Of a stretch of 64,000 bases of DNA, positions 1,050-63,797 are shown piece by piece. This DNA is from Chiloscyllium plagiosum (Eukaryota). Made by a program: the position numbers and the translations under genes. The notes beneath the pieces were generated by a model, which saw only the letters and a program-made list of their open reading frames with translations, had not been told where the DNA came from and did no database searches. Every line of letters begins with the position of its first letter. Position 1 is the stretch's first letter. The stretch covers positions 27,944,094 through 28,008,093 of the forward strand of contig NC_057722.1 in assembly GCF_004010195.1 (NCBI RefSeq). The letters run 5' to 3'.

Positions 1050-1214
1050 AAAACAAGAGCAAAATGCCGTGGTACTGGAAATCTCAACTAGGTTCTAAAG
1101 AAGAATCATGTTAGACACAAAAGCTAAACTCTCTCTCTTCCCCCCCACCAACCCCGATTCCCCCCCAAAATTCTGCCAGACCTGGTGAGTTTCTCCAGCA
1201 CTTTCTATTTTTAT
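1050..1214 (+). mobile_element. Short Penelope-like insertion with decayed hammerhead and inverted 5' piece
   Basis: Resembles the 47639-47786 family; flanked by TAAAGCA(T/A)AATGGT-type 15-bp repeats at 1035-1049 and 1215-1229. Confidence 0.55.
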
Positions 1215-2719
1215 TAAAGCAAAAATGGTGCCTGCTATCCCTGAATGCTTCTACTCTCCTCTAACTAAATAGTACTTCTGCAAAAAGGTCTGTCTTGCTA
1301 AATGTGATTTTTAAACATGAAATAGAAGAATCAAAACCATGCTTCTGAGAAACCAAATGTGGACAAAGATAAGAGACTTGTCTATGTGAATATATATATT
1401 GTACAACTGAGCTTGGAATTCATGCTCCTTGAATGATGCCTGATCTGCTGTGCATTTCTGGTGCCACACTTTTCAACTTGGAATGTATTTCCATTGCTTA
1501 ACTTTCTAATGTTGATAGCAAAATAAATTCCTCTAAATCTTCACATCAGTCAAATTGGCTCAAAGAAAAAAACATTATACAAAGTGAAATCCAACAATGG
1601 GGAATCAAGAGCCATCAAAGAATTTACAAGAGGTGGAAATACCTGGGGATGTCACGACAAAATTCTAGCGAGAAATTCAACAAATACTCTAGTTGTGGAA
1701 TTAGACTCTATAGTACAACTGAGGTTTGCACAACAGAAACAAGAGACAAGATACAAGAAGAGATGGGATTCAGCCATCTTGGTATGAATAAACTATACCA
1801 ATGACACCATGTCAATGAATACCAGCAACCACAATGCATTCATCCAGTTGCATCCATATATTTGGGACTCCAGAGAAGATCAGTAGCTGGCTTTTTGCTC
1901 TACTTGGACTGTATGTCAGAGAACACATTCTCAATCTCCAGTTTCAATAAACTTATTTGTCTAATCACTAAAGTCTTATCATTCCCAAACCACCCACCAA
2001 GCAACCCTTAGGCAGTACTCCACAATAAAAGTTAACAAACAAAAATCATTTTAAAACATTTGCAGATACATACAATACATATACAATAATATAAGTTGCC
2101 TGATTTGCATCTGTACTGTGCTACCCCAGTGGCTGGAGCATGGCTAGTGAAAGTCTGCTGACTTTCAAATGGAGTGACTGCAAACTGTCATGACAGACTC
2201 TTTTGAGCAACTCCGAGCCTTGAAGAATTGGTTACAAGCTTCATCATCTTGCCGTGGGGGTTGACGGATTGGGTTAAGGGACATCAGCAAGACTATAGTA
2301 GGAGTGACAATAGTTGGAGTAAAAATGTTCTGGCTTTCAGATAGAACAACAGCTTTGTCTCTAAAAAGGCTACTGCCACAGGTGCAACATTTCTGTAATC
2401 CTCATGCTCTGTGGGATGATTGCTAAACTGCCATAGCAGGCTTTATGCCCCTGTCAGCACTCAGACCTGCAACCATGATGCCAGAAATCTGAACCTACAG
2501 GTAGCATGCACAGATCTGATAACATCAGCTTGAGCTCCCATTACAGCATTGAGAAGGTAGGTGACTTTTTGCCTTGTGTTGAAATGGAAACTGAAACAAA
2601 GTCCACCAGACACTCCATCATGGGGTCATGGAGTTGTTCATGAATTTCACAGTGGAAACCTCCAGGTTGTGTGATTTTCTCTACCTTGTTGGATCGGAGT
2701 ACAAGGCTGTCTGGTAGAC

Positions 2720-3470
2720 CGAGGTGAAAGTGAGTACTGGCAGATGGTGGAGATCAGAGTCAAGATTAGAGTGGTGCTGGAAAGGCAAAGCAGGCCAGGC
2801 AGCATCCGAGGAGCAGAAAAATCGATGATTCGGGCAAAAGCCCTTCATCAGGAATGAGGCTGGGAGCCTTAGGGGTGGAGAGACAAGTGGGAGGTGGGGC
2901 TGGGGGGAAGGTAGCTGAGAGTGCAATAGGTGGATGGAGGTGGGGGTGAAGATGACATGTCGGAGAGGAGGGTGGAGCAGACAGGTGGGAAGGAAGATTG
3001 ACAGATGGGATAAGTCATTCACATGTGATTTACTGTATCCATTGCTCCCGATGCGGTCTCCTCTACATTGGGGAGACTGGACATCTACTCGCAGAATGCT
3101 TCAGAGAACATCTCTGGGACACCTGCTCCAATCAACCCCACTGCCCTGTGGCTGAACATTTCAATTCCTCCTCCTACTCTGCCAAGGACATGCAGGTTCT
3201 GGGCCTTCTTCATCACCACTCCCTTATCACCTGACACTCTGAGGAAGCACGCCTCATCTTTAGCCTCAGGACCCTTCAACCCCATGGCATCAATGTAGAC
3301 TTCACCAGTTTCCTCATTTCCCCTCCCCAACCTTACCCCAGTTCCAACCTTCCAGCTCAGCACCGTCCTCATGACATGTCCATCTGTCAATCTTCCTTCC
3401 CACCTGTGCCAATGCACAACCACCTCTATGTACTTCATCAGCACCATCACGCCTGTCACCCCCATCAAAG
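2720..3470 (+). mobile_element. Penelope-like element fragment: inverted pseudo-LTR (2720-3010), GIY-YIG endonuclease 3' end, partial pseudo-LTR
   Basis: ORF 2998-3234 gives VIYCIHCSRCGLLYIGETG..LAECFREHL (GIY-YIG with CxxC); a decayed hammerhead lies on the minus strand at ~2822-2851. Confidence 0.8.
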
Positions 3471-3873
3471 TCCTCAACTAGGTCACTTATAGGAGAACTC
3501 AATTTTCACCTCGACCTCCAGGGAGATGGCACATAAATCATCTTTTTCCCAAGAGCCGGTTGCAGTGCAATTATGTCCAATGGCCCACCATGTAAATCCC
3601 AATCCTATACCCATCCCTCAGTCTATCAACTGGTGAATATGCAAAGTGAATGACAGGTAAGGTGATAGTACTTCTTCATCATTGTGATGTTGTTTTCTTT
3701 ATCTTCCTCCTTGGCATGCTGTGGCTTGGCAGGCAATAGGTTTTGGCTATGCAAAAGCAGAGGGTTGGGGTGAGAAAGGGGGCCATGTGCTATATAGCAA
3801 TATGCCCATAGTCATTTCTGAAGAAGTTCTGAAGATGAGTCATACAGGACTTAAAGCATTAATGTTTCTCACA

Positions 3874-5306
3874 GTACCAGGCCGTGCACTCAGAGAATGT
3901 GCAGATCAACTTGTACATGCCTTCTTGGACATCTTCAACCTCTCCCTGCAGCGCCACTGTAACCGCCTGTTTCAAGATGGCCAACATCATCCCTGTGCCT
4001 AAGCATGTCTCAATGACTACCACCCAGTGGCCCTAACTTCAGTGGTCATGAAGTGCTTTGAAAGGCTGATCATGGCATTAATCAACTCCAGACTCCCCAC
4101 TACTCTTGTCCCACTCCAATTTGCCTATCAGACTAATAGTTCCACGTCAGATGCCATTTCACTTGCCCTTCACTCCTCCCTAGAACATCTTGACACCAAG
4201 AACAGCTACTTAAGAATCCTACTCATTGACTACAGTTCAGCCTTCAACACTATTATCTCCTCAAGACTGATTACTAAACTTAGTGATCTCGAACTAAGCC
4301 CCACTCTCTGCAACTGGATTCTCAGTTTCCTGACCCACAGGCCACATCAGTGAAGATTGGGGGCAATATTTCATCCTCACTAACACTCCACACTGGACCC
4401 CCAGGGGTGTGTACTCAGCCCCCTACTGTACTCACTGTATACCCATGACTGCATCGCCAGATACCAGACTAATGCCATTTACAATTTCGCTGATGACACC
4501 ACCATAATCGGTTGAATCTCAGATGGCAACAAAACAAACTACAGACGGAAGGTGAAAGACCTGGAAAAATGGTGCACTGAGAACAACCTAGCTTTCAATG
4601 CCGGCAAAACCAAAGAACACATTATTGACTTTTGGCAGAATGCTACTCATGCCCCCCTACACATTAACAGCACAGAGGTGGAATGAGTGGAGAGTGTCAA
4701 GCTCCTGGGAGTGGTCATCCACAACAAGCCTTCTTGACTCTTCATGTGGACGCATTGGTTACAAAGGCCCAACAACGTCTCTTCTTCCTCAGGCAGCTGA
4801 GGAAATTTGGCATAATGGCAAATACGCTTGCCAACTTTTATAGGTGCGCCATCGAGAGCATTCTGTCTGGATGTATCACTACCTGGTATGGCAACTGTAC
4901 CATTCAAGATCAGAGACTGTGACAGAGAGTGGTGAACTCGGCCCGGACAATCATAAAGGCCAACCTCCCATCTATAGGATCCATCTACCAAGCCTGCTGT
5001 CAAGGAAAGGCTGCCAGCATTCTCAAAGATCCATCCCACCCTGGCAATGCTTTTCTACAACCTCTACCATCGGGGAGAAGGTACAGAAGCCTGAACACAT
5101 GCACCAGCCGATTTGATAACAGTTTCTACCCTACTGTTGTTAGAATACTAAATGGGCTCACAAACTCTTAACATTCGCCTGTACCTGTGTTTTTGTTTTT
5201 GCCACTGTTTACCTATTATTTACTTAGCTATGCTACTTAACTACATGATCTGCCAAAGCTTTTCACTGTGTGTTGGTACACATGACAATAAATTCAATTC
5301 AATTCA
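3874..5306 (+). mobile_element. Rex1/Babar-type LINE, 5'-truncated, disrupted RT
   Basis: [59 protein letters not shown] motifs with frameshifts; AATAAA(TTCAA)n tail. Confidence 0.8.
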
Positions 5307-5464
5307 GATGCTTCCAGACCGAATAAGTTTCTCCAGCATTTGCTCTGCATGTTGCCATGGTCACACCATCACTGTGCCAGATATCAGGGTGAGTATGAAG
5401 AGAGTTAAGAATAGCAGTAACATACCATCATCCTGAATGATCTTAACTACTCAACATGTGTTTA

Positions 5465-9799: not shown

Positions 9800-11363
9800 C
9801 CTGGAGAATTGTATGACTTGTGTTGTAGTTAGGGAATTAAACTAATTAGAGGGAAGGAAACAGCACAGTGAACAGGTTACTGATAAAGTGTAACAGGTAG
9901 GGATAGAAAATATTCATAGAGTAATGCAGCAAAAAATTAGAACCAGAGACAGTAATAATAGAAAAGGTCAAAGCTTAAGGTTCTAAATCTGAATGAATGT
10001 GGCATTTTGAACAATAGATTAGTTGACAGCACAAATAGAAATAAACATGTATGGCTAGATAGCTAATACAATGCCATAGTTACAGAGTGATCAAGACTGA
10101 GAACTCAATATTCAATATTTGGGATTATTCGAAGAATAAGCAAGACAGAAAAAGAATGTGGGTATCTTTGTTAACAAAGATTAGTATCAATGATCTGATG
10201 AGTAGTGAGTAGGTGCAATAGAGCATGATGCAGAAACAATTTGGGCAGAAATAAGGAATGATGAGGGAAACAAGTCATGGATGGGAGTCATCTATAGACT
10301 TTCAAAGGGTTGCCTCACTATAAGACAATACATAAACTGGCAAATAATGGAGACATGAAGGAAGGGCATTACAAGTGTCATGAGTAATTTTAATCTGTAC
10401 ATTGATTGTACAAATCAGATGGGCAAGGGTGACATGGAAGACAAATTTGTACAGTGTACCTGGATTGTTCCTTAGAGTAGTAAATTCAGAATCTACCTAG
10501 GAACAGAGGTAGGATTAAAAGGAGATCTTCTGGAAATAGCAATCACAATGTGGTAGAATTTTAAAATCAGTTTAAGGGACAGCCACTCGAATCTCAAACC
10601 AGTGTTCTCAACTTAAATAAAAACAATTACAAAGGTATAAAGAAAATGTTGTACAAAGTGAACTGGGAAAATAGACTAAGGGGAATGTCAGTAGATGAGC
10701 AGTGACAGATATTTAGGCAGATATTTCACAATGTCAACAAAAAAAAATTCCAGCCAAAAAGGACTTTGTGGGAAGGATGAACTATATGTGATTAACAAAG
10801 GAGGTTAAGGAGAGGATCCAATCAAAGGCTATGGCATATAAACAGTGAAAACTAGTAGTGGGCCACAGAAGTTTATTTAGAAACCAGCAACAGATGACTG
10901 AAAAACAAAATAAAAGGGAAAGAAACTTGACTGTGAGAGTAATTTGCCAAGATATATAAAAACTAACAGCAAGAGATTTTATTGGTTTATACAAAGTGAG
11001 TACCTAAGCTAGGTGTGGGATTGTGGTCAAATGCAACTGGGAAATCGGTAATAGGGAACAGGCAGATAAACCAACATTTTGCATTGGTCTTCACCATGGA
11101 TGACACTATAAATACCCTAAATAGAATAGATAAACAAGGTGCTAATGGGAGGAATGAACTTGCAACAATCTCTATCACAAAGATCACAGTATTTGACAAA
11201 TTAATGGAACTGAACACAGACAAGTTGGCAGGACCTGCATCCAAGGATTTTAAAGGAAGTGATTGCAAAAATAGTGGAGGCATTGGCTAAAATATTCCAG
11301 AATTCATGGATTCCAGGTGGATTCCAAAGGATTGGAAAACAGTTAATATGATGCCACTGTTTA
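9800..11363 (+). mobile_element. Old CR1-type LINE, endonuclease-to-RT region (resumes at ~12341-12385 and ~13610-13720)
   Basis: Degenerate ORF2, e.g. NQHFALVFT..VFDKLMELNTDKLAGP (ORF 11015-11290). Confidence 0.7.
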
Positions 11364-12340
11364 ATCTGTCATTTACATAAATGATTTGGATGTGAGCATA
11401 AAAGGTATAGTTAGCAAGTTTGCAGATGACACCAAAATTGGAGATGTAGTCGACAGTGAAGAAAGTTACCTCAGATTACAATGGGATCTTGATCAAATAG
11501 GCCAATAGGCTGAGGTGTGGCAGATGGAGCTTAATTTAGATAACTGCGAGGTGCTGCATTTTGGGAAAGCAAATCTTAGCAGGACTTATACACTTAATGG
11601 TAAGGTCCTAGGGAGTATTGCTGAACCAAGAGACTTGGAGTGTAGATTCATAGCTCCTTGAAAGTGGAGTCGTATGTAGATAGGATAGTGAAGAAGGTAT
11701 TTGGTATGTTTTCCTTTATTGGTCAGAGCATTGAGTACAGGAGTTGGCAGATCATGTTACGGTAGTACAGGATGTTGGTTAGGCCACTTTTGGAATATTG
11801 CATGCAATTCTGGTTTCCCTCCTATCAGAAGGATGTTGTGAAACTTGAAAGGATTCAGAAAAGATTTACAAGGATGTTGCCAGGGTTGGAGGATTTGAGC
11901 TATAGGGAGAGGTTGAATAGGCTCGGGCTGTTTTCCCTGGAGAATTGGAGGCTGAGGGGTAACTTTATAGAGGTTTATAAAATCATGAGGGGCATGGATA
12001 GAGTAAATAGACAAAATCTTTTCCTGGGGTGGGGGAGTCCAGAACTATGGAGCATAGGTTTAGGGTGAGAGGGGAAAGATATAAAAGAAACCTAAAGGGC
12101 AACTTTTTCACGCAGAGGGTGGTACGTGTGCGGAATGAGCTGCGAGAGGAAGTGGTGGAGGCTAGTACGATTGCAACATTTAAAAGGCATCTGGATGGGT
12201 ATATGATTAGGAAGGGTTTGGAGGGATATGGGCTGGGTGCTGGCAGGTGGGACTAGATTTGGTTTGGGATATCTGGTTGGCATGGACGAATTGGAACGAA
12301 GGGACTGTTTCCATGCTGTACATCTCTATGACTTTATAAC
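11364..12340 (+). mobile_element. Younger CR1 LINE 3' part nested in the older LINE
   Basis: KFADDTKIG, LVRPLLEYC..KLERIQKRFTRMLPGL, GNFFTQRVV; tail CATCTCTATGACT. Confidence 0.88.
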
Positions 12341-12389
12341 TCTATTGGGAAAATGTTGGAGTCCATTACTAAAGAAGCAATGCATTGAA

Positions 12390-13605
12390 GAAACATAGGA
12401 ACTAGGAGCAGGAGAAGGCTTTTCAGCCCTTTGAGCCTGCTCTGCCATTCAATATGATCAAGGCTGATCCTCTATCTCACATCCATATGCTCAGGTGCCT
12501 TGATGCCCTTAAAATCAAAACGTTTATCAAATCTTTCCTGAATATATTCAGCGACTTTGTCAGTACAGCCTTCAATGTTAGAAACTTTTACAGGTTCACT
12601 TTTGATTGAGAAAGCAGCTTTTGACTGAAAATTATTTTCCTCATCTCAGTCATAAATGGCATACTCGATATCCTGAGACTGTCCCCTGCATCTAGTCAAT
12701 CTAGCCTGTTAGAATTGTATACATTACAATTACATCCCATCTCATCTAAACTTTAGAAAAGACAGGCCCAATTGAACCAGTTTCTCCTCATAGGCCAGTC
12801 CTGGCATGGTGGTAACAGGCTTGTGAACCTCTGCTGCACTCCCTCTGATGCAAGTATATCCTTTCCTGAGTACGGAGGCCAAAACTGCATACGATACTCC
12901 AGATATGGTTTATCCAAGGCTCTGTATAACTTCAGTAAGACATTGCATTGAAGGCCAATATACCATTTCCTATCCTAATTAATTGTTGCATCTGCCTGTC
13001 TAATTTCATTGACTGGTGAACAAGGATACCCAGATCCCCTTGTATAATCCACACTTCCCAATATATCACTACTTAAGTTAACAAAAATAAATACTGAAAT
13101 TGCGAGAAAAGGTCAGCAGGTCCGACAGCATCTGTGGAGAGAAATCAGAATTAACGTTTCAGGTCAAGCGAACGCAAACTCAGGACTACCATTTGCATAA
13201 TACTCTTCTTTTCTGATTTTCAAAGGTTTAACTTCACATTTAGCCATATTGTACTGCATTTGTCATGTGTTTTGTCACTCACTCAACTTTTCTAAATCAC
13301 CTTGAAGCTTTCTTGTAGTCTCCTCACAGCCCATAATCCCGCCCAGTTTTATGCCATCAGCAAACCTGGAAATGTCGCGTTTGATACCTTCATCCAGGTC
13401 ATACATTTATTGTGAAAAGCTGGGGCTCAATTACTGATCCTTGCAGTATACAACTAGTCACTGCTTGCCATTCAGAAAAAAATCCATTTATTTCCATTCT
13501 CTGCTTCCTGTCAACCAATTCTCAACCCACACCTATGTAATATGCCCATTCCATGAGCTTTAATTTTATCATCTAACCTCTTATGAGGGATGTTATGCAA
13601 AGTCT
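12390..13605 (-). mobile_element. Old CR1 LINE 3' part, containing a Penelope-type fragment at ~13080-13185
   Basis: Reverse-complement CR1 3' end and RT remnants (CCATCAGCAAAC = FADG). Confidence 0.7.
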
Positions 13606-14601: not shown

Positions 14602-14640
14602 AAATCCCTGACGAAGGGCTTTTGCTCGAAACGTCGATTT
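14602..14640 (+). ncRNA. Minimal hammerhead ribozyme motif, intact core
   Basis: CTGACGA-A-GGGC/TTTT/GCTC-GAAA-C-GTC; palindromic ACGT stem III; GUC cleavage triplet at 14633-14635. Confidence 0.65.
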
Positions 14641-14695
14641 TCCTGCTCCTCGGATGCTGCCTGACCTGCTGTACTTTTGCAGCACCACATTCTCG
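14602..14695 (+). mobile_element. 94-bp Penelope-derived insertion
   Basis: 17-bp flanking repeat ACTACTT(TT/CC)TCTGGCAG at 14585-14601 and 14696-14712. Confidence 0.75.
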
Positions 14696-15019: not shown

Positions 15020-15670
15020 ATAACACACCACATATCCTGAGGCCAGGATCCCTGGGTTTAGACTCCCACAAATAGGGAAAACATTCTTGCTAAATCTACT
15101 CTGTCCAGCCCGGTTAGAATTTTACGCGTTTCAATCAGATCCCTACTCATCCTTCTAAACTCTGGTGAATACAGGCCTTAAATGAATTAATCTCTACTCA
15201 GGTCAGCAGCTGAAAATGTGTTGCTGGAAAATGCAGCAGGTCAGGCAGCATCCAAGGAACAGGAGAATCGATGTTTCAGGCATAAGCCCTTCTTCAGGTC
15301 AGCAGGTCTGGCAGCATCTGTAAGGAGAGAAATCTGAAACCAAAAGAGAAAATGCTGGAAAATCTCAGCAAGTCTGGCAGCATCCGCAGTAATTTGCTTT
15401 TATCTACTCAGGTCAGTCCTGCCATTCCTGGTATCAGCCTTGTGAACCTCTGCTGCACTTCCTCTATGACAAATGTATCCTTTCTTAGGGAGAGATAAAA
15501 ACTGCATGATATACAACAGGTATGGTGTCACCAAGGCCCTGTCTAATTGCAGCAAGAGGAGACTTCTGAACTCAAATCCTGTTGCAGTGAAGGCCAATGT
15601 GCCATTTGCCTTCCTCATTGCTTGTTGCACCTGCCTGTCTACTTTCATTGATTAGTGTACAAAGACACCA
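15020..15670 (-). mobile_element. Old CR1 fragment with composite Penelope insertion (15207-15402)
   Basis: ORF 15400-15648 QVQQAMRKANGTLAF..LVTPYL; 14-bp TSD TCTACTCAGGTCAG at 15193-15206 and 15403-15416; hammerhead-like core on minus at 15270-15297. Confidence 0.72.
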
Positions 15671-20950: not shown

Positions 20951-20964
20951 TTGTCTTCTCTTTT

Positions 20965-21552: not shown

Positions 21553-21785
21553 GTCAAGATTAGAGTGGTGCTGGAAAGGAACAGCAGGTCAGGCAGCATC
21601 CGAGGAGCAGGAAAATCGATGTTTCAGGCAGGAGACCTTCATCAGGATGAAGGATATTCCTGATGAGGGGCTCCTGCCCAAAACGTTGACTTTCCTGCTC
21701 CTCGGATGCTGCCTGACCTGCTGTGCTTTTCCAGCACCACTCTAATCTTGACTCATCTCCAGTATCTGCAGTCCTCACTTTCGCC
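21553..21785. mobile_element. Penelope-derived inverted pair (95-bp arms) with two hammerhead-like cores
   Basis: Arms 21553-21647 and 21658-21752; flanking repeat CATTCCAT(G/A)CACGT at 21541-21554 and 21786-21799. Confidence 0.8.
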
Positions 21786-22363
21786 CATTCCATACACGTA
21801 CCACCCTCTGCGAACTTATAACTGTACCTTTTATGCTCACATCCAAATCATTTATATAAATGACAAAAAGTAGAGGACCCTGCACAAATTCTTATGGCAC
21901 TCCACTGGTCACAGGCCTCCAGTCTGAAAAACAACCCTCCACCACCACGCTTTGTTTTCCATCTTTGAGCCAGTTCTGTAACCAAATGGCTAGTTCTCCC
22001 TGTATTCTGTGAGATTTAACTTTGCTAATCAGTCTCCCATGGGGAACCTTGTCGAACGCCTTACTGAAGTCCAAATAGATCATGTCTACCACTCTGCCCT
22101 CATCGATCCTCTTTGTTACTTTTTCAAAAAACTCGATCAAGTTTGTGAGACATGATTTCCCACTCACAAAGCCATGTTGACTATCCCTAATCAGTCCTCA
22201 CCTTTCCAAATACATGTACATCCTGTCCCTCAGGATTCCCTCCAACACCTTGCCCACTACCAACGTCAGGCTCACCAGTCTATAGTTCCCTGGCTTGTCC
22301 TTACTACCTTTCTTAAACAGTGGCACCATGTTAGCTAACCTCCAGTCTTCCGGCACCTCACCT

Positions 22364-22688: not shown

Positions 22689-22726
22689 ATAAGTGAGTAT
22701 TGATGATACAAATATCTCAGCAAGAG

Positions 22727-23157
22727 AAAGTGAGGACTGCAGATGCTGGAGATCAGAGCTGAAAATGTGTTGCTGGAAAAGCGCAGCAGGTCAGGCAGCA
22801 TCCAAGGAGCAGGAGAATCGACATTTCGGGCATGAGCCCTTCTTCAAGAATGAGGAAAGGGTGCCAAGCAGGCTAAGATAAAAGATGGGGAGGAGGGACT
22901 TGGGGGCAGGGCGTTGGAAATGCGATAGGTGGAAGGAGGTTAAGGTGAGGGTGATAGGCCGGAGTGAGGGTGGGGCGGAGAGGTCAGGAAGAAGATTGCA
23001 GGTTAGGAAGATGGTGTTGAGTTCGAGGGTTGGGACTGAGACAAGGTGGGGGGAGGGGAAATGAGGAAACTGGAGAAATCTGAGTTCATCCCTTGTGGTT
23101 GGAGGGTTCCTAGGCGGAAGATGAGGCGCTCTTCCTCCAGCTGTCGTGTTGCTATGG
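22727..23157 (-). mobile_element. Penelope-like element 3' end (GIY-YIG C-terminus plus pseudo-LTR)
   Basis: Minus strand reads TRQLEEERLIFRLGTLQPQGMN; 12-bp TSD TCTCAGCAAGAG at 22715-22726 and 23158-23169; mutated hammerhead core at ~22820-22847. Confidence 0.82.
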
Positions 23158-23904
23158 TCTCAGCAAGAGGCCCAGCAATCACTTCCCTAGCTTCCTACAG
23201 AGTATGAGGTTACACCTGATCAGATCCTGTGGATTTATCCACAAGACATCCAGCACTTCCTTCTCTGTAATATGGACATCATTCAAGCTGTCACCATCTA
23301 TTTCCCTACATTCTATATCTTCCGTGTCCTTTTCCACAGGAAATACTGATGCAAAATACTCATTTAGTATCTCCCCCATTTTCTGCACCTCCACACAATT
23401 TAGGTACACTATTTCAAATATTGATTGTAACTTTTAAAACTAAGGTACAACCGATCCAGGAGTCAATGTCAAGCAGAGAGCACAGGAGTGATGGCTGAAT
23501 GCAACATGATGTGAACTAGGACACAGGCAGCAGTGGAAATGTCTGAACAGTGGAATATAGGAGGCCAATCAGGGTTCATTAGAATGGTCATTGAGTGGTG
23601 ACAAAGGTATGGATGAGAGTTACAGCTGCATATGAGCTTAGGCAGGGCAAAGTTGAGTGGTGCTATGAATGTGAAAATAGGTGTTTTTTAGAGCTGGCAC
23701 AGACATGAGGTTTGAAGCTCACCTTGGGATCAAATGTGACATTAAGGTTGTGAACTGTTCACAAATCCAAAATGTGAAACTGTATATTAACTGTTTCACT
23801 CGACAGATGCTGTCTGACATGCTGAATATATACAGCATTTTGTGTTTATTCATAACAGCCAAGTTCAGCTTCAGGTTATGCTAAGAAGAGGTCACTTAGA
23901 TTCA

Positions 23905-26900
23905 TAAAGTCATAGAGATGTACATCACGGAATCAGACCCTTCGGCCCAACTCGTCCATGCCGAACAGATATCCCAACCCAAATCTAGTCCCACCTGCCA
24001 GCACCTGGCCCATAGCTCTCCAAACCCTTCCCATTTATCTATCCATCCAAATGCCTTTTAAATATTGCAATTGTACCAGCCTCCAACACTTCTTCCGGCA
24101 GCTCATTCCATACACGTACCACCCTCTGTGTGAAAACGTTGCCCCTTAGATCCCTTTTATATCTTTCCCCTCTCACCATAAACCTATGCCCTCTATTTCT
24201 GGACGGCCCCACCCAGGGAGAAGACGTTGTCTATTTATCCTATCCATGCCCCTCATAACTTTGTAAACCTCTATAAGGTCACCCCTCAGCCTCCGACGCT
24301 CCAGGGAAAACAGCCCCAGCCTGTTCAGCTTCTCCCTATAGCTCAAATCCTACAACCCTTGCAACATTCTTGTAAATCTTTTTTGAACCCTTTCAAATTT
24401 CACAACATCTTTCCGATAGGAAGGAGAGCAGAATTGCATGCATTATTCCAATAGTGGTCTAACCAATGTCCTGTACAGCCACAACATGACCTCCCAACTC
24501 CTGTACTCAATAGTCTGATGAATAAAAGAAAGCATACCAAACATCTTCTTCACTATCCTATCTAGCTGTGACTCCACTTTCAAGGAGCTATGGACCTGTA
24601 CTCCAAGGTCTCTTTTTTTCAGCAACACTCTCTAGGACCTTACCATTAAGTATATAAGTCCTGCTACAATTTGCTTTCCCAAAATGCAACACCTTGCATT
24701 TATCTGAATTAAACTCCATCTGGCACTTCTCAGTCCATTGGCCCAACTGATCAAGATGCCATTTTAACCTGAAGTAATCTTCTTCGCTGTCCACTACACC
24801 TCCAATTTTGGTGTCATCTACAAACTTACCAACTATACCTCCTATACTCACACCCACATCATTTATATAAATGACAAAAGGTAGTGGACCCAGCATGAAT
24901 TCTCGTGGCACTCCACTGGTCACAGGCCTCCAGTCTGAAAAACAACCCTCTACCACCACCCTCTGTCTTCTACCTTTGAGACAGTTCTGTATCCACATGG
25001 CTAGTTCTCCCTGTATTCCGTGAGATCTAACCTTGCGAACCAATCTCCCATGGGAAACCTTGTTGAACGCCTTGTCTACTGCTCTGCCCTCATCAATCCT
25101 CGTTGTTACTTCTTCAAGTTTGTGAGATGATTTCCCATGCAAAAAGCTACATTGGCGATCCCTAATCAGTCCTTGCCTTCCCAATTACATGTACATCCTG
25201 TCCCTCAGGATTCCCTCCAACCACCAATGTCAGGCTCACTGGTCTATAGTTCCCTGGCTTGTTCTTATTACCTTTCTTAAACAGTAGCACCACGTTAGCC
25301 AACCTTCAGTCTTCCGGCACCTCAACTGTGACTATCAATGATACAAATATCTCAGCAAGAGGCCCAGCAATCACTTCTCTAGCCTCCCACAGAGTTCTAG
25401 GGTACACCTGATCAGGTCCAATGGAGTTATCCACCTTTATGAGTTTCAAGACATCCAGCACTTCCTCCACTGTAATATGGACATTTTTCAAGATGTCACC
25501 ATCTATTTCCCTACATTCTATATCTTCCATGTCCTTTTCCACAGGAAATACTGATGCAAAATACTCATTTAGTATCTCCCCATTTTCTGCGGCACCACAC
25601 AAATGCCACCTTGCTTATCTTTGAGGGGCCCTATTCTCTCCCTAGTTATCCTTTTGTCCTTAATATATTTATAGATATCTTTTGGATTCTCCTTAATTCT
25701 ATTTGCCAATGCTATCTCATGTCACCTTTTTGTCCTCCTGATTTCCCTCTTATATATACTCCTACTTCCTTTATACTTTTCTAAGGATTCACTCAATCTA
25801 TCCTGACCATACCTGACGTGTGCTTCCTTCTTTTTCTTAACCAAATCCTCAATTTCTTTAGACATCCAGCATACCCTATACCTACCAGCTTTTCTTTTCA
25901 CCCTAACAGGAATATACTTTCTCTGGACTCTTGTTATCTCATTTCTGAAGGCTTTCCATTTTCCAGCCATCCCTTTACCTACGAACATCTGCCTCCAATC
26001 AGCTTTTGAAAGTTCTTGCCTAATACCATCAAAATTGGCCTTCCTCCAGTTTAGAACTTCAATTTTTAGATCTGGTCTATTCTTTTCCATCACTATTTTA
26101 AAACTGAATCAGAAAATGTTCTTGTACACACTTAACAAATTCCTCTCCATCTATGGCAGTCCCAATCTTTGTTTGCAAAGTTAAAATCCTCTACTATGAT
26201 CACTCTGTTGTTCTTAAAGATAGCTGAGATCTCCTTATAAATTTGTTTCTCAGTTTCCCTCTGACTATTAGGAGATCCCAAAAAGGTGATTATCCCTTTC
26301 TTATTTTTCGGTTCCATCCAAATAACTTTCCTGGATGTATTTCCGGGAATATCCTCCCTCAGTACAGCTGTAATGCTATCCCTTATCAAAAAGGCCACTC
26401 CCACTCCTCTCTTGCCTCCCTTTCTATCCTTCCTGTAGCATTTGTATCCTGGAACATTAAGCTACCAGTTCTGTCCATCCCTGAGCCATGTTTCTGTAAT
26501 TGCTATGATATCCCAGTCTCATGTTCCTGAATTCATCTGCCTTCCCTGTTAGGCCCTTTGTATTGAAATAAATGCAGTTTAATTTATCAGTCCTACCTTG
26601 TTCTCTGCTTTATCCCTGCCTGCCCTGACTGTTTGACTCACTTCTGTTCTCAACTGTACCAATCTCAGATTGATTTCTTTCTTCACTATCTCCCTGGATT
26701 CCACTCGCCCACCTTACTAGTTTAAATCCACCCAAGCAGCTCTCACAAATTTCCCTGCCAGTATATTAGTCCCCTTCCAATTTAGGTGCAATCCATCCTT
26801 CTTGTACAGGTCACTTCTACCCCAAAAGAGATTCCAATTATCCAAAAATGTGAATCCTTCTCCCATACACCAGTTCCTCAGCCATGCATTCATCTGCTCT

Positions 26901-28748: not shown

Positions 28749-29116
28749 CTGTCCTCATGACTTGTCCTACCTGCCAATCTCCCTTCCCACCTATCTGCTC
28801 CACCCTCCCCTCTGACCTATCACCTCCATCCCCACCCCCATTCACCTATTGTACTCTTTGCTACCTTCCCCCACCCTCCTCTCTCACCTATCACCTCCAT
28901 CCCCATCCCCATTCACCTATTGTACTCTTTGGTACCTTCTCCCCTCCACCCCCATTTATCTCTCACTCTGGAGGCTTCCTGTCTCTATTCCTGATGAAGG
29001 GCTTTTGCCTGAAACATCAATTTTCCTGCTCCTTGGATGCTGCCTGACCTGCTGTGCTTTTCCAGCATCACTCTGACCTAAATTCTGATTTCCAGCATCT
29101 GCAGTCCTCACTTTTG
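28749..29116 (+). mobile_element. Penelope pseudo-LTR with internal ~70-bp tandem duplication and hammerhead-like core
   Basis: 13-bp TSD ACCACGATAAGCA at 28736-28748 and 29117-29129; CTGATGA-A-GGGCTTTTGCCT-GAAA-C-ATC at 28991-29018. Confidence 0.82.
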
Positions 29117-37578: not shown

Positions 37579-37857
37579 TCACAGCCCTAGTGCTGCAGCG
37601 TGTTTTTTCGCTTTAAGTCTCAAGTCCGCAATGCTGGAGTTTTTACTGGTGGTTTTGGCTGCTGCTGCCGCTGCCACCACCGTGGCGGATTCTGCCAAGG
37701 TGGCCAGGGGCAAACCAAAGGGCGGTGGAGGGAACATCATATAGGGCGCATGTGCAGCCAGGTGTGGGTGGAGGTGATGGTGCGCATGCGCCACGCTGTC
37801 CAACTGCAGCTGCGCCTGGACCTGAAAGGACAAGGGAGTCATGTTGCAGTGATTCTC
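37579..37857 (-). CDS. SHOX2: SHOX2 last coding exon (OAR domain); alternative in-frame acceptor at 37821
   Basis: Acceptor TTTCAG|; [55 protein letters not shown]...[25 protein letters not shown] at 37581-37579. Confidence 0.95.
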
Positions 37858-40800
37858 CTGAAACAGAATAAGGAGAGAACATTGTTATAAGATACCCTGT
37901 TCGTCAAAAATAGGCAGTGGTAACAAATACTTAACTGATTAAAAAGCGAAAACGTTACTGTATAGTATTGGTGCATTGATCAATAGACGAGAAGGAAATA
38001 AAAGGGTTAAGGAGAGTTTGTCCAGTGCCTGGCTCTCTCAATGCTGCATCCAGTAAGCTGGGGGCAGCACAACAGATATTGTACACAGTTCCAAGACTGT
38101 ATGGTTAATGGACTCTTATTTCTTCGAACGCGTTAAACCACGAAGAGTAACACAAGAGTTTTAAACAATTGCTTCTGAGGAACTGAAAGAGACAATGAAA
38201 GTGGCTCGTTGAATACGGCATTTCCCCACATTTAGCGATTCTACTATTTGAACACAGTCATCGAACGGACAATATAGTGGGGTCGCAGGCTGTGGCAAAC
38301 AGATTGTCTTACCAACACACTGCAGTTAGACTCTATTGTTTCCAAGAATGGTGAACGCTTTGCCTCAGAAGTGATAACGATGCCGGTGAGCTATAACATA
38401 TTCCCTGGAATGCAACAAAATGTGTCCTCCAGGGCGCCTCGCCATGCAAATAGCTCTAACCAAAAACGGAGTAAAGTATGAAAATACCACTTGAAACAAC
38501 ACTTTGCTCTCCCACACCACGATGGAGGAAAACCTTTGTGGAAATTCGCTAAAGTGAACAAAGTATTTGAAAAGCATTAAGAAATCTCGATTTTAAAAGT
38601 GGTAGAGATGTTAGGGACAACACCAGAATTTAGAAATTTTTTTAGTTAAAAATCACACAACACCAGATTATAGTCCAACAGGTTTAATTGACCTGGTGTT
38701 GTGTGATTTTTAACTTTGTACACCCCAGTCCAACACCAGCATCTCCAAATCATGATTTTTTTTTGAGTCTTTCTTAATTTGTTGAGAAAAAAAAACTTTA
38801 AGGGCACTATCAGAAGGATGTTGTGAAACTTGAAAGGGTTCAGAAAAGACTTACAAGGATGTTGACAGGGTTGGAGGATTTGAGCTATAGGAAGAGGCCG
38901 AATAGTCTGGGGCTATTTTCCCTGGTGCGTCAGAGGCTGAGGGGTGACCTTATAGTGGTTTTAAAAATCATGAGGGACATGGATAGGGTAAATAGAAAAG
39001 GTCTTTTCCCTGGAGTGGGGGAGTTCAGAATTGGAGAGCATAGGTTTAGGGTGAGAGGGGAAAGATATAAAAGGGACCTAAAGGGCAACTTTTTTTCACA
39101 CAGAGGGTAGTGCCTGTATGAAATGAGCTGCCAGAGGTAGTGGTGGAGGCTGGTACAACTACAACACTTATAAGGCATCTGGATGGTTATATGAATAGGA
39201 AGAGTTTAGAGGGATGTGGGCCATGTGCTGGCAAATGGGACCAGTTAAGGTTTCGAAGCTCCTCGGATGCTGCCTGAATTGCTGTGCTCTTCCAGCACCA
39301 CTGATCCAGAATTAGGATATCCTAAGACGAGTTTGTCCGAAGAGTCTGTTTCTGTGTTGTACATCTCTATGCACTGCAGAAATTCATCAAAGCTCCTTCA
39401 ACAGTACATTCCCAACGCGTCACCACTTCCATCTCCAAGAACAAGGGCAGCAAATATATGGGAACAACCCTTGGAAGTTCCCCTCCAAGCCACTCACTAT
39501 CCTGACTTGGAAATATATACTTCCTTCAGTGTCCCTTTGTTAAAATTCTGGAATTACCTCACTTAAGGGCATCAAATGGATTGCAGCAGTTCAAGAAGAC
39601 AGCTCACCACCACCTTCTCAACGGCAAATAGAGATTGGGCAATACACACTGGCCCAGCCAGCAAGGTCCACCTCCCATGAATAGACTTTAAATCTCACAA
39701 TTTGTCAATGAAAGATTTTAAAAGTTGTATTTAAAATGTACAGTTAGATGTGTGCAAATGAATAAAATTCCGTTTCAATTAGTCGAACGTCTGGATAGCC
39801 CACACAAAGGGCAATCCGAATAAACGCAGTGCCGTTCAAATCTAATTCATTGACGAGATGCATAGGCAAAATCAGGTTATTCTACGATATGGGAGTCCTT
39901 TGAGCAGGACGGCAATCATAAATAAGGAATACCGCAACTGTTCAACAGTTTTTGCAAGAGTTTAGACATTTAAAAACAGCTTTCTACGCTAAGAATGTGT
40001 CAGTATTAGCAGCATTTACTGATAAAAGGCAGAACACGCCACATAACACGGACAGTTAGGGATTAATTGAAAATGGTGACAAAAGTGGAAAAAAAACTCC
40101 CCGAACATATCAGAGAACCTCATAGGTTTTGCTCCCCCATCAATGGTTACTTATCCTCATTTTGGGACAACATCCAAGGAGAATTATTGATAGTATGTGT
40201 TCATTATCAATATCGTGTTAGCAATAACATGGTGAGAACTGCTCAAAAGATGAGGAAGATGACATATTTAAATAATTAGTGGAATTTTATTTCCAAAACA
40301 AGTTTCGTTAAAGCAGCGACAGTACGTTAAAAGATCGTGCATCTTCCCTAATGGAGATTGTATGCAATGAGCTTTGATGCATTTATACTTGCCTGTTGAA
40401 ATGGCATTCTCAAGGCTCCCACGTTAACGTATGGTGCCACTCGACAAGCTTCGAACTGACTGGTGGTACCAATGAGTACACCTACAGTAGTAAAAGGAAG
40501 TTCAAATCTAAGGAAAAAGTTCTCACGTCAGAGTCTGGAGCCATTAATCTTAATAGTTTTTGTGACTTCAGATACAATGACATCATAATGATGGAAAACA
40601 TAATTCTGCTTAAAATCAGGCTACACAGTGTATGCATAATGAATGAATCAATGAATGAATGAATGATTGTAGCGTTTACTATTTTTGTTCCACTACCAGC
40701 TACCCTCAACCTCCAACGTTCACCCACTTGCCTTTCCATAACCCCCACCTTGGCCCCAAAATCCAGACTAAAATTTGTCTCTCCTTTCGTCGGCTTATAA

Positions 40801-47638: not shown

Positions 47639-47786
47639 ATAAATAAAGCAAAGAACTGAAAATGCTAAAAATCTGAAACAAAAATAGAAATTTATTGGGA
47701 AATTCAGCAGGTCTGGCAGCATCTGAGGAGAGAGAAATGGAGTTATCGTTTCGGGTCTAGTGACCCTTCTTCAGAACTTTCTTCAT
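47639..47786 (-). mobile_element. Penelope-type mini element (third family) with hammerhead-like core
   Basis: Minus strand AGTT-CTGAAGA-A-GGGTC/ACTA/GACCC-GAAA-C-GAT-AACT (triplet mutated); 10-bp TSD AATTTTATGG at 47629-47638 and 47787-47796. Confidence 0.72.
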
Positions 47787-48302
47787 AATTTTATGGGTGT
47801 TCTGGACTTCACAGAGAAACACTATTTGGATTGTACCAAACACGTACCACCATCTTCCAGTGTTTTTCACGGGCACATGCAACATTGCGTTTTAATTCTG
47901 ATGTTTTTCTTATTACTTCACAAATAAAATACAAATCGTTCTCAAATTTGTTGAATACGAAAAACAATGTCAATGGGCACTAAATTAAAGATGGCTTGTG
48001 AAAACCACCACAAAAAAATCCTACGTATGCGAAAGCACAACATCGTTCCGAATGCGATTTTGGTTTAAAATTACGCAAGGTAATTACTGTCAGTGTATGG
48101 CAAATACTAAAATATAAATACCATAAATTCCTACGCGTTGTCCTGAAGTTATTTAGGGCAGACATTGGTTCAGTCTACAAAACTAACTGATCTGTTAGTG
48201 TTTGATAATTTGATAAATAAATTTAATATTCATATGTCTGCAACATCTATTTGAACATTATTTTAATCCACAAATCACAGTTTTATGTGCAAGTTGTTTC
48301 TT

Positions 48303-48802
48303 NNNNNNNNNNNNNNNNNNNNNNNNNNNNNNNNNNNNNNNNNNNNNNNNNNNNNNNNNNNNNNNNNNNNNNNNNNNNNNNNNNNNNNNNNNNNNNNNNN
48401 NNNNNNNNNNNNNNNNNNNNNNNNNNNNNNNNNNNNNNNNNNNNNNNNNNNNNNNNNNNNNNNNNNNNNNNNNNNNNNNNNNNNNNNNNNNNNNNNNNNN
48501 NNNNNNNNNNNNNNNNNNNNNNNNNNNNNNNNNNNNNNNNNNNNNNNNNNNNNNNNNNNNNNNNNNNNNNNNNNNNNNNNNNNNNNNNNNNNNNNNNNNN
48601 NNNNNNNNNNNNNNNNNNNNNNNNNNNNNNNNNNNNNNNNNNNNNNNNNNNNNNNNNNNNNNNNNNNNNNNNNNNNNNNNNNNNNNNNNNNNNNNNNNNN
48701 NNNNNNNNNNNNNNNNNNNNNNNNNNNNNNNNNNNNNNNNNNNNNNNNNNNNNNNNNNNNNNNNNNNNNNNNNNNNNNNNNNNNNNNNNNNNNNNNNNNN
48801 NN
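48303..48802. other. Assembly gap (500 N)
   Basis: Run of N; the round length suggests a placeholder size. Confidence 0.99.
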
Positions 48803-56839: not shown

Positions 56840-58155
56840 GACACAGTCCTACAGCATGGAAACAGACCCATCAGACCAACCAGCCCAATCCCCAACTAAA
56901 CTAGTCCCATCTGTCTGCTCCTGGCCCATATCCCTTCAAACCTTTCCTATTCATGTACTCATCCCAATGTCTTTTAAACATTATAATTATACCCACATCC
57001 ACCACTTCCTCAGGAGGTTCATTCCATACGTGAATCACCTGTATAAAAAATTTGCCCCACATGTCTTTTTAAATCTCTCTCCTCTCTTCTTAAAATGTCT
57101 TGTCTTGAAATTTCCCATGGGAGGAAAACTGATTTATACCCCGCATTCTTTTATAACTTCAATAAAGTTGCCTCTCCACCTCCCATGCTTCAGTGAAAAA
57201 ATGTTCTAGCCTATCCAGTCTTTTTTTATTATAACTCAATCTTCCACACCTGGCAACATCCTGGTAAATCTCTTCTGAACCCTCTCCAGCTTGATAATAT
57301 CCATCTTATAAATGGGTGACAAAAATGGACACAATATTCCAGAAGAGGCCTCACCGAAATCCTGTACAACCTCAACATGACTTCCCAACTCCTATACTTA
57401 AAGGATTGAGCAATGAAGGCAAGCGTGCTAAATGCCTTTTAACCACCCTGTCTATATGTGATGCAAACATTAACGAATTATGTTTCTGAACCCCTATGTC
57501 CCTCTGTTCTACAACACTAACCAAATGCCAACCTCTAATTGTATAAGCCCTACCCTTTGTTTGTTGTACCAATATGCAATACTTTGCATTTATCCAGATT
57601 GAACTCCATCTGCCATTTGTAAGCCCATTGACCCATTGATCAAGATCCCTTTGTACTCTTAGAAAACCTTCCTTACTGTCTACTGTGCCAACAATGTTGG
57701 TGTCATTTGCAAACTTACTAACCGTGCCTTCTATATTCTCATCCAAATCATTTATATAAATGACAAACAAAAGAGGACCCAGAACTGATCAGTGTGTATC
57801 ACCTCTGGTAGCAAGCGTCCAGTCCAAAAAGCAACTCTCCACCACCATTCTGTCTCCTGCTCTTAAGCCAATTATGTATCCAATCGGCAAGCTCACCGTG
57901 AATTCCATGTACCTAACTTTACTAATTAGTCTATCACGTGGAACCTTGTTGAAGGGCTTTGCTAAGGTGCAAAAGTAAACGTCTTCTGCTCTGCCCTCCT
58001 CAATCTTTTTGGTAACTTCCTTAAAACAACTTTCATCAAGTTTGTGGGACACAACTTTCCTTGCACAAAACTGTGCTGACTGTTTTGCCTTTTTTTTTGC
58101 CTCTTTAAATGTCCATAAATCCCATCTATTAAAATCACCTCCAACAATTTACATG
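56840..58155 (-). mobile_element. CR1 LINE RT plus 3' tail
   Basis: FVIYINDLDENIEGTVSKFANDT, KPFNKVPRDRL. Confidence 0.87.
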
Positions 58156-58879: not shown

Positions 58880-59080
58880 TCGTAGTTCTGGATATGTTCG
58901 CTGAGCTGGGAAGTTGATTTGCAGGCGTTTAGTCCCCTGTCAAGGTGATATTTTCAGTGCCTCCTGTGAAGGGCTGCTGTACTGTGTCTTCTAGAATTAA
59001 TTTGGTTCTGTTCCTGCTGCCTCCAGTTACGGTTCTGGTTGTTCGTTGTAGTAGCCGGTATACGCAAACCTAGGACACCA
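58880..59080 (-). mobile_element. Penelope-type remnant (fourth family) with decayed hammerhead
   Basis: Minus strand GCA-CTGAAAA-TATCACCTTGACAGGGGAC-TAAA-C-GCC-TGC at ~58921-58960 keeps the hammerhead layout but with mutated boxes. Confidence 0.4.
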
Positions 59081-59196
59081 ATGTGATTAATAATGATCTG
59101 GATTGCATAGCTGGAAAGTGCTGTGAAAGCAACTTCAATCATAACTTTCAAAAGGGAAGTAGATTTAAATTTTTACCAATTCCCTGCTCTTTACTG

Positions 59197-59502
59197 ATCA
59201 TACAACATAAAGGGAGGTCATACATCCATCTCACCTGTGTCAAATCATTGATAGATTTCAATTTTTACCAATTCCCTGCTCTTTACTGATAATCCTGAAA
59301 TTTTCTTTCCTTGGAAGTTCAGAGGAACCTCAATTATCCGAATATCAATTATCTCGTTCGGATAATTGAGGCTCCCCTGTACTTCCAAGGAAAGAAATTT
59401 TCAGGATTATCAGTAAAGAGCAGGGAATTGGTAAAAATTGAAATCTATGAATGATTTGACACAGGTGAGATGGATGTATGACCTCCCTTTATGTTGTATG
59501 AT
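59197..59502. repeat. 306-bp palindrome (146-bp arms, 14-nt spacer) centred on a MITE-like core 59320-59379
   Basis: 59197-59342 is the reverse complement of 59357-59502 with about five mismatches. Confidence 0.93.
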
Positions 59503-62094: not shown

Positions 62095-63190
62095 GACTGG
62101 CTAGCATGGTTAGATCTCATGGAATACAGGACGAACTAGCCATTTGGATACAGAACTGGCTTGAGAGTAGAAGACAGAAGGTGATGGCCTGGGACCAGTG
62201 GAGTGCCACAAGGATCGTTACTGGGTCCTCTACTTTTCATTATTTATATAAATTATTTGGATATGAAGATAGGAGATATAGTTAGTAAGTTTGCAGATGA
62301 CACCATAATTGGAGGTATAGTGGACAGCGCAGAAGGTTATCTTGGGTTACAACAGGTTCTTGATCAGATGGGTAAGTGGGCTGAGGAGTGGCAGATGGAG
62401 TTTAATTTAGATAAATGTGAGGTGCTGCATTTTGGGAAAGCAAATCTTAGCAGGATTTATTAACTTAATGGTAAGGTCCTAGAGAGTGCTGCTGAACAAA
62501 GAGCCCTTGGCGTGCAGGTTCATAGTTCCTTGAAAGTAGAGTCGCAGATAGATAGGATAGTGAAGAAGGTGTTTGGTATGCTTTCCTTTATTGGTCAGAG
62601 TATTGAGTCCAGGAGTTGGCAGGTCATGTTGTGGCTGTACTGGATGTTGGTTAGGCCACTTTTGGAATATTGCGTGCATTTCCAGTCTCCTTCCTATCAG
62701 AAGGATGTTACGAAACTTGAAAGGGTTCAGAAAAGATTTACAAGGATGTTGCCAGCATTGGATGAGCTATGGGGAGAGGTTGAATAGGTGGGGTCAGTTT
62801 TTCCTGGAATGCGAAGGCTGAGGGGTGATTTCATAGAGGTTTGTAAAATCACGAGGGGCATGGACAGGGTAAATAGACAAAGACATTTCCCAGGGGTGGG
62901 GGAGTCCAAAACTAGAGGGCAAAGGTTTAGGGTGAGAGGGGAAAGATATAAAAGAGATCTAAGGGGCAACTTTTTCACACAGATGGAATGAGCTGCCAGA
63001 GGAAGTGGTGGAGGCTGGTACAATTGCATTATTCAAAAGGCATCAGGATGGGTATATGAATAGGAAGGGTTTAGAGGGATATGGGTCAAGTGCTGGCAAA
63101 TGGGACAAGATTAGGTTGGGATATCTGGTCGGCATGGATGTGTTTGACCAAACGGTCTGTTTCTGTGCTGTACATCTCTGACTCTGTGAT
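62095..63190 (+). mobile_element. CR1 LINE RT plus 3' tail
   Basis: PQGSLLGPLLFIIYIN..KFADDT..; LVRPLLEYC; RRLRGDFIEV. Confidence 0.9.
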
Positions 63191-63797
63191 TGGTTGCCAA
63201 ATAGCTGAGCAACTTGGAGGAGTATGAATGTTTAGGTCAGAAGTAATTTGATCTCTGGAACGGAAGAAGCTGTATTTGTTGTGCAATTAAAAAGCATCTC
63301 AGGTGGAGATCAAAGTTGAAACTTTATTGCTGGAACAGCACAGCAGGTCAGGCAGCATCCAGGGAACAGGAGATTCGACGTTTCGGGCACAGGCCCCTCT
63401 TCAGGACTGAGCAGAGAGTGTTCAGCAGGAGAAGATAAAAGGTAGGGAGGAGGGACTTGGGGGAGGGGCGTTGGAAATGTGATAGGTGGAAAGAGGTCAA
63501 GGTGAAGGTGATAGGTCGGAGTAGGGTGGAGGCGGAGAGGTCAAGAAGAAGACTGCAGGTCAGGAAGGCGGTGCCGGGCTGGAGGGCTGGCAAATGGGAC
63601 GAGATTAGGTTGGGATATCTGGTCGGCATGGATGTGTTTGACCAAACGGTCTGTTTCTGTGCTGTACATCTCTGACTCTGTGATTGGTTGCCAAATAGCT
63701 GAGCAACTTGGAGGAGTATGAATGTTTAGGTCAGAAGTAATTTGATCTCTGGAACGGAAGAAGCTGTATTTGTTGTGCAATTAAAAAGCATCTCAGG
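63092..63797 (+). repeat. 212-bp direct repeat (63092-63303, 63586-63797) flanking a Penelope fragment
   Basis: Copies differ at one visible position (GGGACAAG / GGGACGAG). Confidence 0.92.
63304..63585 (-). mobile_element. Penelope pseudo-LTR fragment with intact hammerhead core (63404-63377)
   Basis: Similar to 22740-23030; minus strand CTGAAGA-G-GGGC/CTGT/GCCC-GAAA-C-GTC. Confidence 0.82.

Follow-up and report, generated by a model that had tools for sequence, protein, structure and literature searches.

How Penelope-like elements (PLEs) come to insert as tandem and inverted copies, and what their hammerhead ribozymes do, are stated as open questions in sections of PMC8557442 and PMC11167929. 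Reverse transcription from an internal start has been shown in vitro for an Anolis PLE, as described in part of PMC11167929. Sections of PMC3846280 and PMC8557442 report a TATA/initiator (Inr)-like motif in a rotifer pseudo-long terminal repeat (pLTR) and a zinc-finger-like linker in Neptune, and a portion of 10.64898/2026.07.22.740005 places non-LTR retrozymes in the one chondrichthyan sampled there. Here, we describe hammerhead-bearing inserts in the 3.56-Gb genome of Chiloscyllium plagiosum, centered on a 64,000-nt stretch of contig NC_057722.1 (C13 below; positions 27,944,094 to 28,008,093), hereafter called the window. The elements belong to a known type, for which solo hammerheads, opposite-strand duals, inverted copies, and tails have already been published. 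The 5′ ends of the short copies (stubs) are not random and have a sharp upstream limit near −4; here and for all positions relative to an element, the C of CTGA is 0 and the cleavage site is +28. The inserts are probably 5′-truncated pLTR copies of several endonuclease-bearing PLEs, mass-produced by the elements' own reverse transcriptase (RT)-endonuclease, with synthesis running off the RNA 5′ end at −4.

Census of hammerhead-bearing inserts

We searched the window and a 664-kb sample consisting of the window, the preceding 200 kb, and four arbitrary 100-kb blocks (C1, C3, C6, and C20). A strict descriptor (CTGANGA, a stem II of at least 4 bp, GAAA, and UH) gave 6 matches in the window, compared with a mean of 0.06 (maximum, 1) over 100 dinucleotide shuffles, and 52 in the sample, compared with a mean of 0.2 over 10 shuffles. 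Profiles of the hammerhead and tail gave 22 window matches at E < 0.01, exceeding the list in an earlier note made from the sequence of this stretch. In the sample they gave 223 matches, and 33 of the 201 copies analyzed (score of at least 25) had an intact hammerhead core. Extrapolated from the five blocks, the genome would hold about 1.1 million copies, which is a rough figure. Exact tail patterns matched the genome 19,461 times for subfamily A3, 15,436 times for A5, and 8,566 times for D2, and a pattern just beyond the tail matched 844 times. An Rfam scan returned no hammerhead family match at E ≤ 5; the minimal hammerhead forms escape Rfam detection.

The earlier note had named 13 sites that share one hammerhead layout. 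Twelve of them are clear copies (the site at 3828 is marginal), and the profile search recovered a near-complete ribozyme region at 10, with the C of CTGA at 14608, 21660, 28991, and 31844 on the plus strand and at 2851, 15297, 21645, 22847, 47774, and 63404 on the minus strand. The site named at 58921 is a decayed copy of family D with its core at 58957 on the minus strand (E = 3e-5). The full layout survives intact at only three sites (14608, 31844, and 63404); at the others, a core base is broken or stem III has undergone CpG-type decay. The copies form distinct families whose stem II differs yet pairs (GGGC/GCCC, GGAGC/GCTCC, and GGGTC/GACCC), as the note had it, but its description of the families as unrelated was too strong, since families A and C detect each other at E = 1e-10. 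Stem I also covaries across families (ATTC/GA(A/T)T, CAC/GTG, and AGTT/AACT), and stem III is the palindrome ACGT or AGCT. With a conserved core, stems I and II, a palindromic stem III, stem covariation between families, and linked remnants of open reading frames (ORFs), the inserts carry minimal type I hammerheads of the PLE type. When monomers and dimers were folded by energy, stem II was recovered in several copies, and the active fold was not.

With the pair at 21645/21660 counted as one insert, 8 of the 12 inserts are bounded by target-site duplications (TSDs) of 11 to 17 bp, in keeping with the proposal that most have TSDs of 10 to 17 bp. The exceptions are one insert flanked by a 215-nt duplication and those at 1095, 2851, and 3828, where no mismatch-free duplication of at least 8 bp was found.

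Distribution of 5′ ends

The 5′ ends were mapped in A3 on a set comprising the first 100 listed matches to a 23-mer of the tail on C1 and one copy found nearby, with one copy beside an assembly gap dropped. Each copy was aligned to a long natural copy (98% identical), an arrangement in which ends downstream of +67 are invisible. Among the 100 ends, 37 lie at −7 to −3, 30 at −2 to +9, 16 at +10 to +66, and 17 at −10 to −319. The stop hazard in the −7 to −3 peak is 0.227, compared with a background of 0.0049 per nt, a 46-fold difference. Only 2 of the 100 ends fall near the cleavage site (+26 to +30). On this count we rejected ribozyme cleavage as the process that sets the 5′ ends, and for the same reason the templates of reverse transcription were uncleaved.

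The same edge is visible in the 664-kb sample, where ends at −7 to +1 compare with ends at −20 to −8 as 39 versus 9 of 114 in family A, 7 versus 0 of 29 in B, and 22 versus 1 of 46 in C. Family D is without the edge seen in these three. In D2, a Poseidon-type subfamily with its own hammerhead, 1 of 23 ends lies near −6, 4 of 25 lie at −20 to −28, and 5 of 25 reach the edge of the retrieved DNA. Because D2 has a hammerhead and no peak, the hammerhead alone does not force a stop. The suspicion that the short copies are more than random truncations was well founded: mapped relative to the CUGA box, their 5′ ends pile up near −4.

Identity of the parent elements

Long A3 copies extend upstream into a frame encoding an RT thumb, a cysteine linker, and a GIY-YIG domain (PF01541; E = 1e-4), and PLE ORF remnants lie upstream on the same strand in long copies of families A, B, C, and D. 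In the window, the two copies previously linked to GIY-YIG coding sequence indeed carry such remnants, at 2995-3303 (E = 2e-17) and at about 23070-23155. The arrangement is that of endonuclease-bearing PLEs, with RT followed by a C-terminal GIY-YIG domain upstream of the terminal repeat on the same strand, partial tandems that form pLTRs, and an inverted 5′ copy with an optional tail of 30 to 40 bp. Most A3 copies end at one of two fixed 3′ positions, +91 (+90 to +92 in 33 of 101 copies) and +126 (+125 to +127 in 57 of 101). Beyond the long 3′ end follow a 42-codon upstream ORF (from +46) and then the main frame, the start of which resembles the N terminus of a full-length relative. The upstream ORF in family A (L192 and L243) extends over the beginning of the main ORF, and its first codons lie within a motif shared by families A and C. 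The module therefore is a pLTR, as its order runs from the ORF end through the 3′ untranslated region (UTR), the hammerhead, and the two fixed 3′ ends to the ORF start again in partial tandems.

A zinc-finger-like cysteine motif between RT and endonuclease is given as a feature of the Neptune clade in a section of PMC8557442. We found a cysteine-rich linker in this position in L013/L004 and upstream of a family-C copy, and families A and C appear Neptune-like, with clade labels taken solely from the linker and the layout. Among named proteins, one of a bamboo shark comes closest to the parent ORF, with 75% identity over half of the query. No intact full-length master was recovered among the long loci examined, several of which carry assembly gaps. 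In sequence, the short young copies agree with the ends of copies that carry an ORF, with 100% identity in a pair at 162734-162956 of the C13 sample.

Palindromic pairs

All 24 A3 head-to-head pairs combine one long-ended and one short-ended arm, and 18 of them have a TSD of 12 to 17 bp. The further-reaching arm was of one type in 7 pairs and of the other in 15, with 2 ties (P = 0.13). On inspection, centers differ among 30 family-B palindromes selected for resembling the one in the window, and A3 centers mostly differ as well, the exceptions being two identical pairs and one head found at three loci. The pairs fit an origin from two cDNAs, one from each of the two RT start sites shown for the Anolis enzyme, that were primed on opposite strands of the target.

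The two identical A3 palindromes (L133/L134 and L153) lie 3.5 Mb apart and have the same sequence past one arm, which is also present in L026; they may reflect a duplication or a composite that was copied again. Three loci (L253, L263, and L273) have the same inverted head junction, that of a palindromic head which was itself re-copied.

A tandem sub-lineage

A junction defining a 224-nt hammerhead unit matched the genome 40 times, on many contigs and never in the window, compared with the 19,461 A3 tail matches. Sixteen new and four earlier loci of this lineage were mapped, and most contain two or three tandem hammerhead units. Further junctions are common to subsets of the loci, and several upstream units extend past −4. 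Loci L192, L247, and L259-L276 belong to this lineage; L247 has the junction twice in a row. From its sequence, the 224-nt sub-lineage does look re-mobilized and retrozyme-like: outside the window, it combines tandem hammerhead units with signs of re-copying.

A proposed start-site model for the −4 limit

Retroviral minus-strand strong-stop DNA is a short cDNA that is primed internally and extends to the 5′ end of the RNA. We tentatively propose, as a possibility somewhat short of probable, that the stubs are integrated strong-stop DNAs that map, to the base, an mRNA with four bases before the hammerhead, that a dimeric RT-endonuclease primes both strands at two sites in one event, and that template jumps build promoter tandems and occasionally an array that is re-copied and, as in the 40-match lineage, would be a newborn retrozyme. 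Solo and inverted pLTRs, tails, tandems, and retrozymes would in that case all follow from one rule. The narrower reading, which we hold probable, is that transcription starts at the initiator-like A at −4, making the hammerhead the first part of the mRNA, and that reverse transcription starts internally, 95 to 130 nt downstream. An RT starting on the 5′ copy of the internal site would run off the RNA end, and the resulting stub would be integrated, in the manner of a strong-stop DNA. Palindromes would form when both nicked strands of the target are primed, one at each start site, and partial tandems when a jump to another RNA follows run-off. Stubs formed in this way would have no TATA-like box, and most would be inactive from the moment of insertion. 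The ribozyme probably has its role at another stage of the cycle, before or after this one, either to cut tandem read-through RNA or to remove the cap, with a predicted need for a dimer or a protein.

Several features suggest a start site at this position. An initiator-like YYANWYY with its A at −4 is present in five of six long A and C copies examined, and five of these six have TATA-like words at −33 to −37. Two B copies have a comparable word at about −38, and in family D such words lie at −48 and −53 (TATAAA at −53 in D2). The stubs have no upstream TATA-like box, the candidate boxes being outside the short units. Downstream units of partial tandems begin at −4/−5 in L245, L249, L251, and L258, joined to a copy that extends to +190 to +270. 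A splice acceptor at −4, a candidate prompted by the intron in Drosophila virilis Penelope, was rejected for A3: there is no AG before the site, and a splice site is excluded because no upstream exon is common to the 18 solo peak copies (longest common word, 9 nt).

Other observations weigh against a start at −4. There is no clear signal of a cap-derived extra G (2 of 8 solo copies at −4). RNA reads on L013:700-1900 numbered 1,268 in one run, on both strands and with no pile of starts or ends, and 0 in a second run; loose ends of these reads at the long 3′ end are what copies embedded in host transcripts should give. The loosely defined initiator consensus also matches at other places upstream, the family-A box (TTTAT/CTTAT) departs from a canonical TATA, and a list of TATA-like motifs found none in one tested set of A1 and B copies. 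The peak is weak in A5 (4 of 13 copies reaching −3, with one of the four uncertain). Copies that extend past the limit include several tandem units (L261, L262, L265, and L268) and 17 of the 100 A3 copies; therefore 3′-copy or read-through templates also exist. Passages of PMC2377424 and PMC4209133 describe for D. virilis Penelope a TATA-less internal promoter with starts well upstream of the hammerhead. Finally, in families A, B, and C the 5′ edge of stem I falls at the predicted start, so that start site and ribozyme edge are confounded, and the cluster in D2 that could tell them apart is weak (4/25).

Alternative explanations

The limit might instead be set by the enzyme or by structure, if an RT that started on the 3′ pLTR halts or lets go as it leaves the hammerhead/protein complex, or if the endonuclease trims the new DNA at its own ATT site. 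This would place the limit where it is found in families A, B, and C, at the 5′ edge of stem I, and agrees with the absence of a cap signature at −4 in solo copies (extra G in 2/8). The Anolis enzyme, according to a section of PMC11167929, prefers 5′-ATT-3′ on its own ORF-pLTR junction DNA, and family A has ATT at −4 to −2. However, the sequence at the limit is not ATT in C (AGTT) or B (AACCAC), the A5 peak is weak although ribozyme and ATT are the same there, and D2 carries a hammerhead yet has no peak at −6. In addition, RT usually stalls on entering a structure rather than on leaving it, which we count against this kind of stop. We consider it unlikely, if the strongest of the competing accounts. 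Random 5′ truncation, with the peak an alignment artifact, is highly improbable. Conservation between subfamilies does end at stem I, as all A subfamilies have ATTC at −4 and diverge upstream, which can halt alignments of old copies. The peak, though, is sharpest in A3, where it was measured against a 98%-identical long natural copy, and TSDs and inverted partner arms delimit ends without any reference; A3 end mapping and TSD-bounded ends thus largely refute this explanation.

Two further proposals concern the pairs and the stubs as a class. The palindromes could arise by fold-back of the first cDNA, a self-priming proposed in a passage of PMC3846280, or as a unit that moves whole like a miniature inverted-repeat transposable element (MITE). 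Many A3 centers overlap by 1 to 3 nt, as self-priming would allow. Simple fold-back predicts, however, that the same arm type is always the longer (observed, 7 versus 15), and a MITE predicts identical centers, whereas those of the B and most A3 palindromes differ, apart from the cases given above. We regard both routes as rather unlikely. Lower still do we rate the suggestion of the earlier note that the stubs are a separate, non-autonomous class resembling short interspersed nuclear elements (SINEs) or retrozymes; in such a class, the short copies would themselves be transcribed and re-copied, possibly via ribozyme cleavage and circles. In its favor are the very high copy number and preferred size, the re-mobilized composites (one junction 40 times on many contigs, nested shared junctions, and two identical A3 palindromes), and the internal promoter of D. 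virilis Penelope described in part of PMC2377424. A SINE would have its own lineage with a fixed 5′ end and short masters; instead, young stubs match the ends of long ORF-bearing copies and their junctions vary, as do the 30 family-B centers. Furthermore, the 5′ ends lie upstream of the cleavage site rather than at it, the window copies are solo or head to head rather than in the tandem hammerhead units of retrozymes, and the re-mobilized lineage amounts to about 0.2% of A3 tail matches.

Features of the window

In family A, a solo stub at 14604-14695 (plus strand) has its 5′ end at −4, a short 3′ end, an intact hammerhead, and a 17-bp TSD with 2 mismatches. Two long copies lie at 28749-29116 (plus; a 3′ UTR that contains an internal duplication, the hammerhead at 28991, a long tail, and a 13-bp TSD) and at 2723-3500 (minus; outer end approximate), the latter with its core C at 2851, a mutated GAAA, and the GIY-YIG remnant at 2995-3303 inverted (tblastn E = 2e-17). 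The head-to-head pair at 21554-21787 joins a minus arm running from −2 to the short end (core at 21645) and a plus arm running from −4 to the long end (core at 21660), within a 14-bp TSD with 1 mismatch. Subfamily A2 is represented by a long copy at 22724-23160 (minus), with a GIY-YIG C-terminal remnant, 3′ UTR, hammerhead (22847; C3 mutated), long tail, and 12-bp TSD, and by a solo stub at 15208-15298 (minus; 5′ end at −1, short 3′ end, 12- to 14-bp TSD) nested in C-type tail fragments (15298-15388). A2 stubs are inserted into family-C copies at two places, window 15208-15388 and 4300-4560 of the C13 sample (L031), and a preference for related pLTRs as targets is possible. An A5 tail fragment from about +30 was found by profile search at 39251-39312 (plus). 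The young A3 copy at 63304-63582 (minus; about −180 to +101) has an intact hammerhead (63404) and no long tail and is enclosed by direct repeats of 215 nt (63089-63303 and 63583-63797) that are 99% identical; this flanking repeat may be a TSD of unusual length, may have arisen by local duplication, or may be an artifact of assembly.

In family B, a head-to-head pair at 31723-31926 has a minus arm with a long, internally deleted tail and a plus arm running from −5 to the short end with an intact hammerhead (31844), within a 14-bp TSD; a tail fragment at 38646-38690 (minus) came from the profile search. The family-C solo stub at 47641-47778 (minus) has its 5′ end at −4, a long end, a mutated U16.1, and a 12-bp TSD with 1 mismatch. 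Other C copies are a decayed stub with a broken core at 1092-1214 (plus; nhmmer E = 3e-14; the site named at 1095), a marginal, heavily decayed C-like remnant, also with a broken core, at 3826-3870 (plus; nhmmer E = 0.013, with no match to the first profiles; the site named at 3828), and two stubs absent from the earlier note, one at 13085-13171 (minus; profile search), which begins within the hammerhead at +11, and one decayed at 31418-31512 (plus; E = 1.5e-11). The decayed, Poseidon-type copy of family D at 58881-59071 (minus) has a broken core (58957), about 114 nt of upstream reach, and an 11-bp TSD with 1 mismatch.

The remaining features are of other kinds. At 59197-59502 lies a MITE-like hairpin element with 146-nt arms, 97% complementary, a 14-nt loop, and no hammerhead; Rfam microRNA matches in the window were traced to this unrelated hairpin. 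Long interspersed nuclear element fragments, which we take to be of the CR1/L2 type from their RT-like translations, lie at 11357-12344, 23897-26461, 56888-58148, and 62186-63170, and several host stubs. An open frame with a terminal OAR-type motif at 37579-37884 (minus) resembles what is presumably the last exon of a SHOX/SHOX2 homeobox gene. The assembly has a gap of 500 bases at about 48300-48800.

Comparison with known systems

A fixed 5′ limit in a subfamily of about 19,000 matches predicts that the RNA is capped at an end 4 nt ahead of the ribozyme core, that templates escape cleavage, and that twin priming takes place, and the 5′ pile-up is a testable clue to how PLEs move. It also matters for annotation, as the million or so stubs (extrapolated) would otherwise be miscalled SINEs or MITEs. 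The analogy with retroviral strong-stop DNA has its bounds: here, the product would be target primed and integrated as such, with no tRNA primer, integrase, or true LTR.

In literature searches on PLE hammerheads, promoters, pLTRs, and sharks (titles and abstracts, and passages of PMC6155905 and PMC8969392), these shark families, the 5′-end pile-up, and its interpretation as a start site were not found; the families may already be catalogued in Dfam or Repbase. With the metazoan PLE pLTR hammerheads in sections of PMC4209133, the shark copies share the type I minimal core, the unpaired base before stem II, G10.1-C11.1, and the palindromic 15.2-16.2, and in both cases a genome holds several consensus families, most motifs are single and come from truncated PLEs, and some duals lie on opposite strands. 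In those sections, motif counts run to thousands per genome, no shark is named, and 5′ ends are left unmapped, whereas here about a million stubs, by extrapolation, have a fixed upstream limit.

Canonical endonuclease-bearing PLEs of the Neptune and Penelope/Poseidon groups, as presented in parts of PMC3846280 and PMC8557442, share 5′ truncation, partial tandems, the inverted 5′ copy, the optional 30- to 40-bp tail on one arm, TSDs, and solo pLTRs. Those accounts have few solo pLTRs, which they explain by recombination or deletion, and they ascribe inversions to self-priming; in the shark, insertions that consist of a stub alone, each with a TSD of its own, predominate. The Anolis Poseidon element PAc studied in vitro (sections of PMC11167929) resembles the shark elements in its two internal RT starts that define the tail, the nicking and extension of both strands, the predicted dimer, and the uncleaved RNA template. 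No start site or genomic 5′-end distribution is given in those sections. The PAc ORF starts inside the hammerhead, as that of family D appears to, whereas the family-A ORF starts about 160 nt downstream, behind the 42-codon upstream ORF. Non-LTR retrozymes, as characterized in part of 10.64898/2026.07.22.740005, are likewise non-coding, hammerhead bearing, and PLE derived, and the chondrichthyan families among them may include those described here. They are defined there by tandem units that each carry a hammerhead; the window copies are solo or inverted, and it is the 224-nt tandem sub-lineage that fits.

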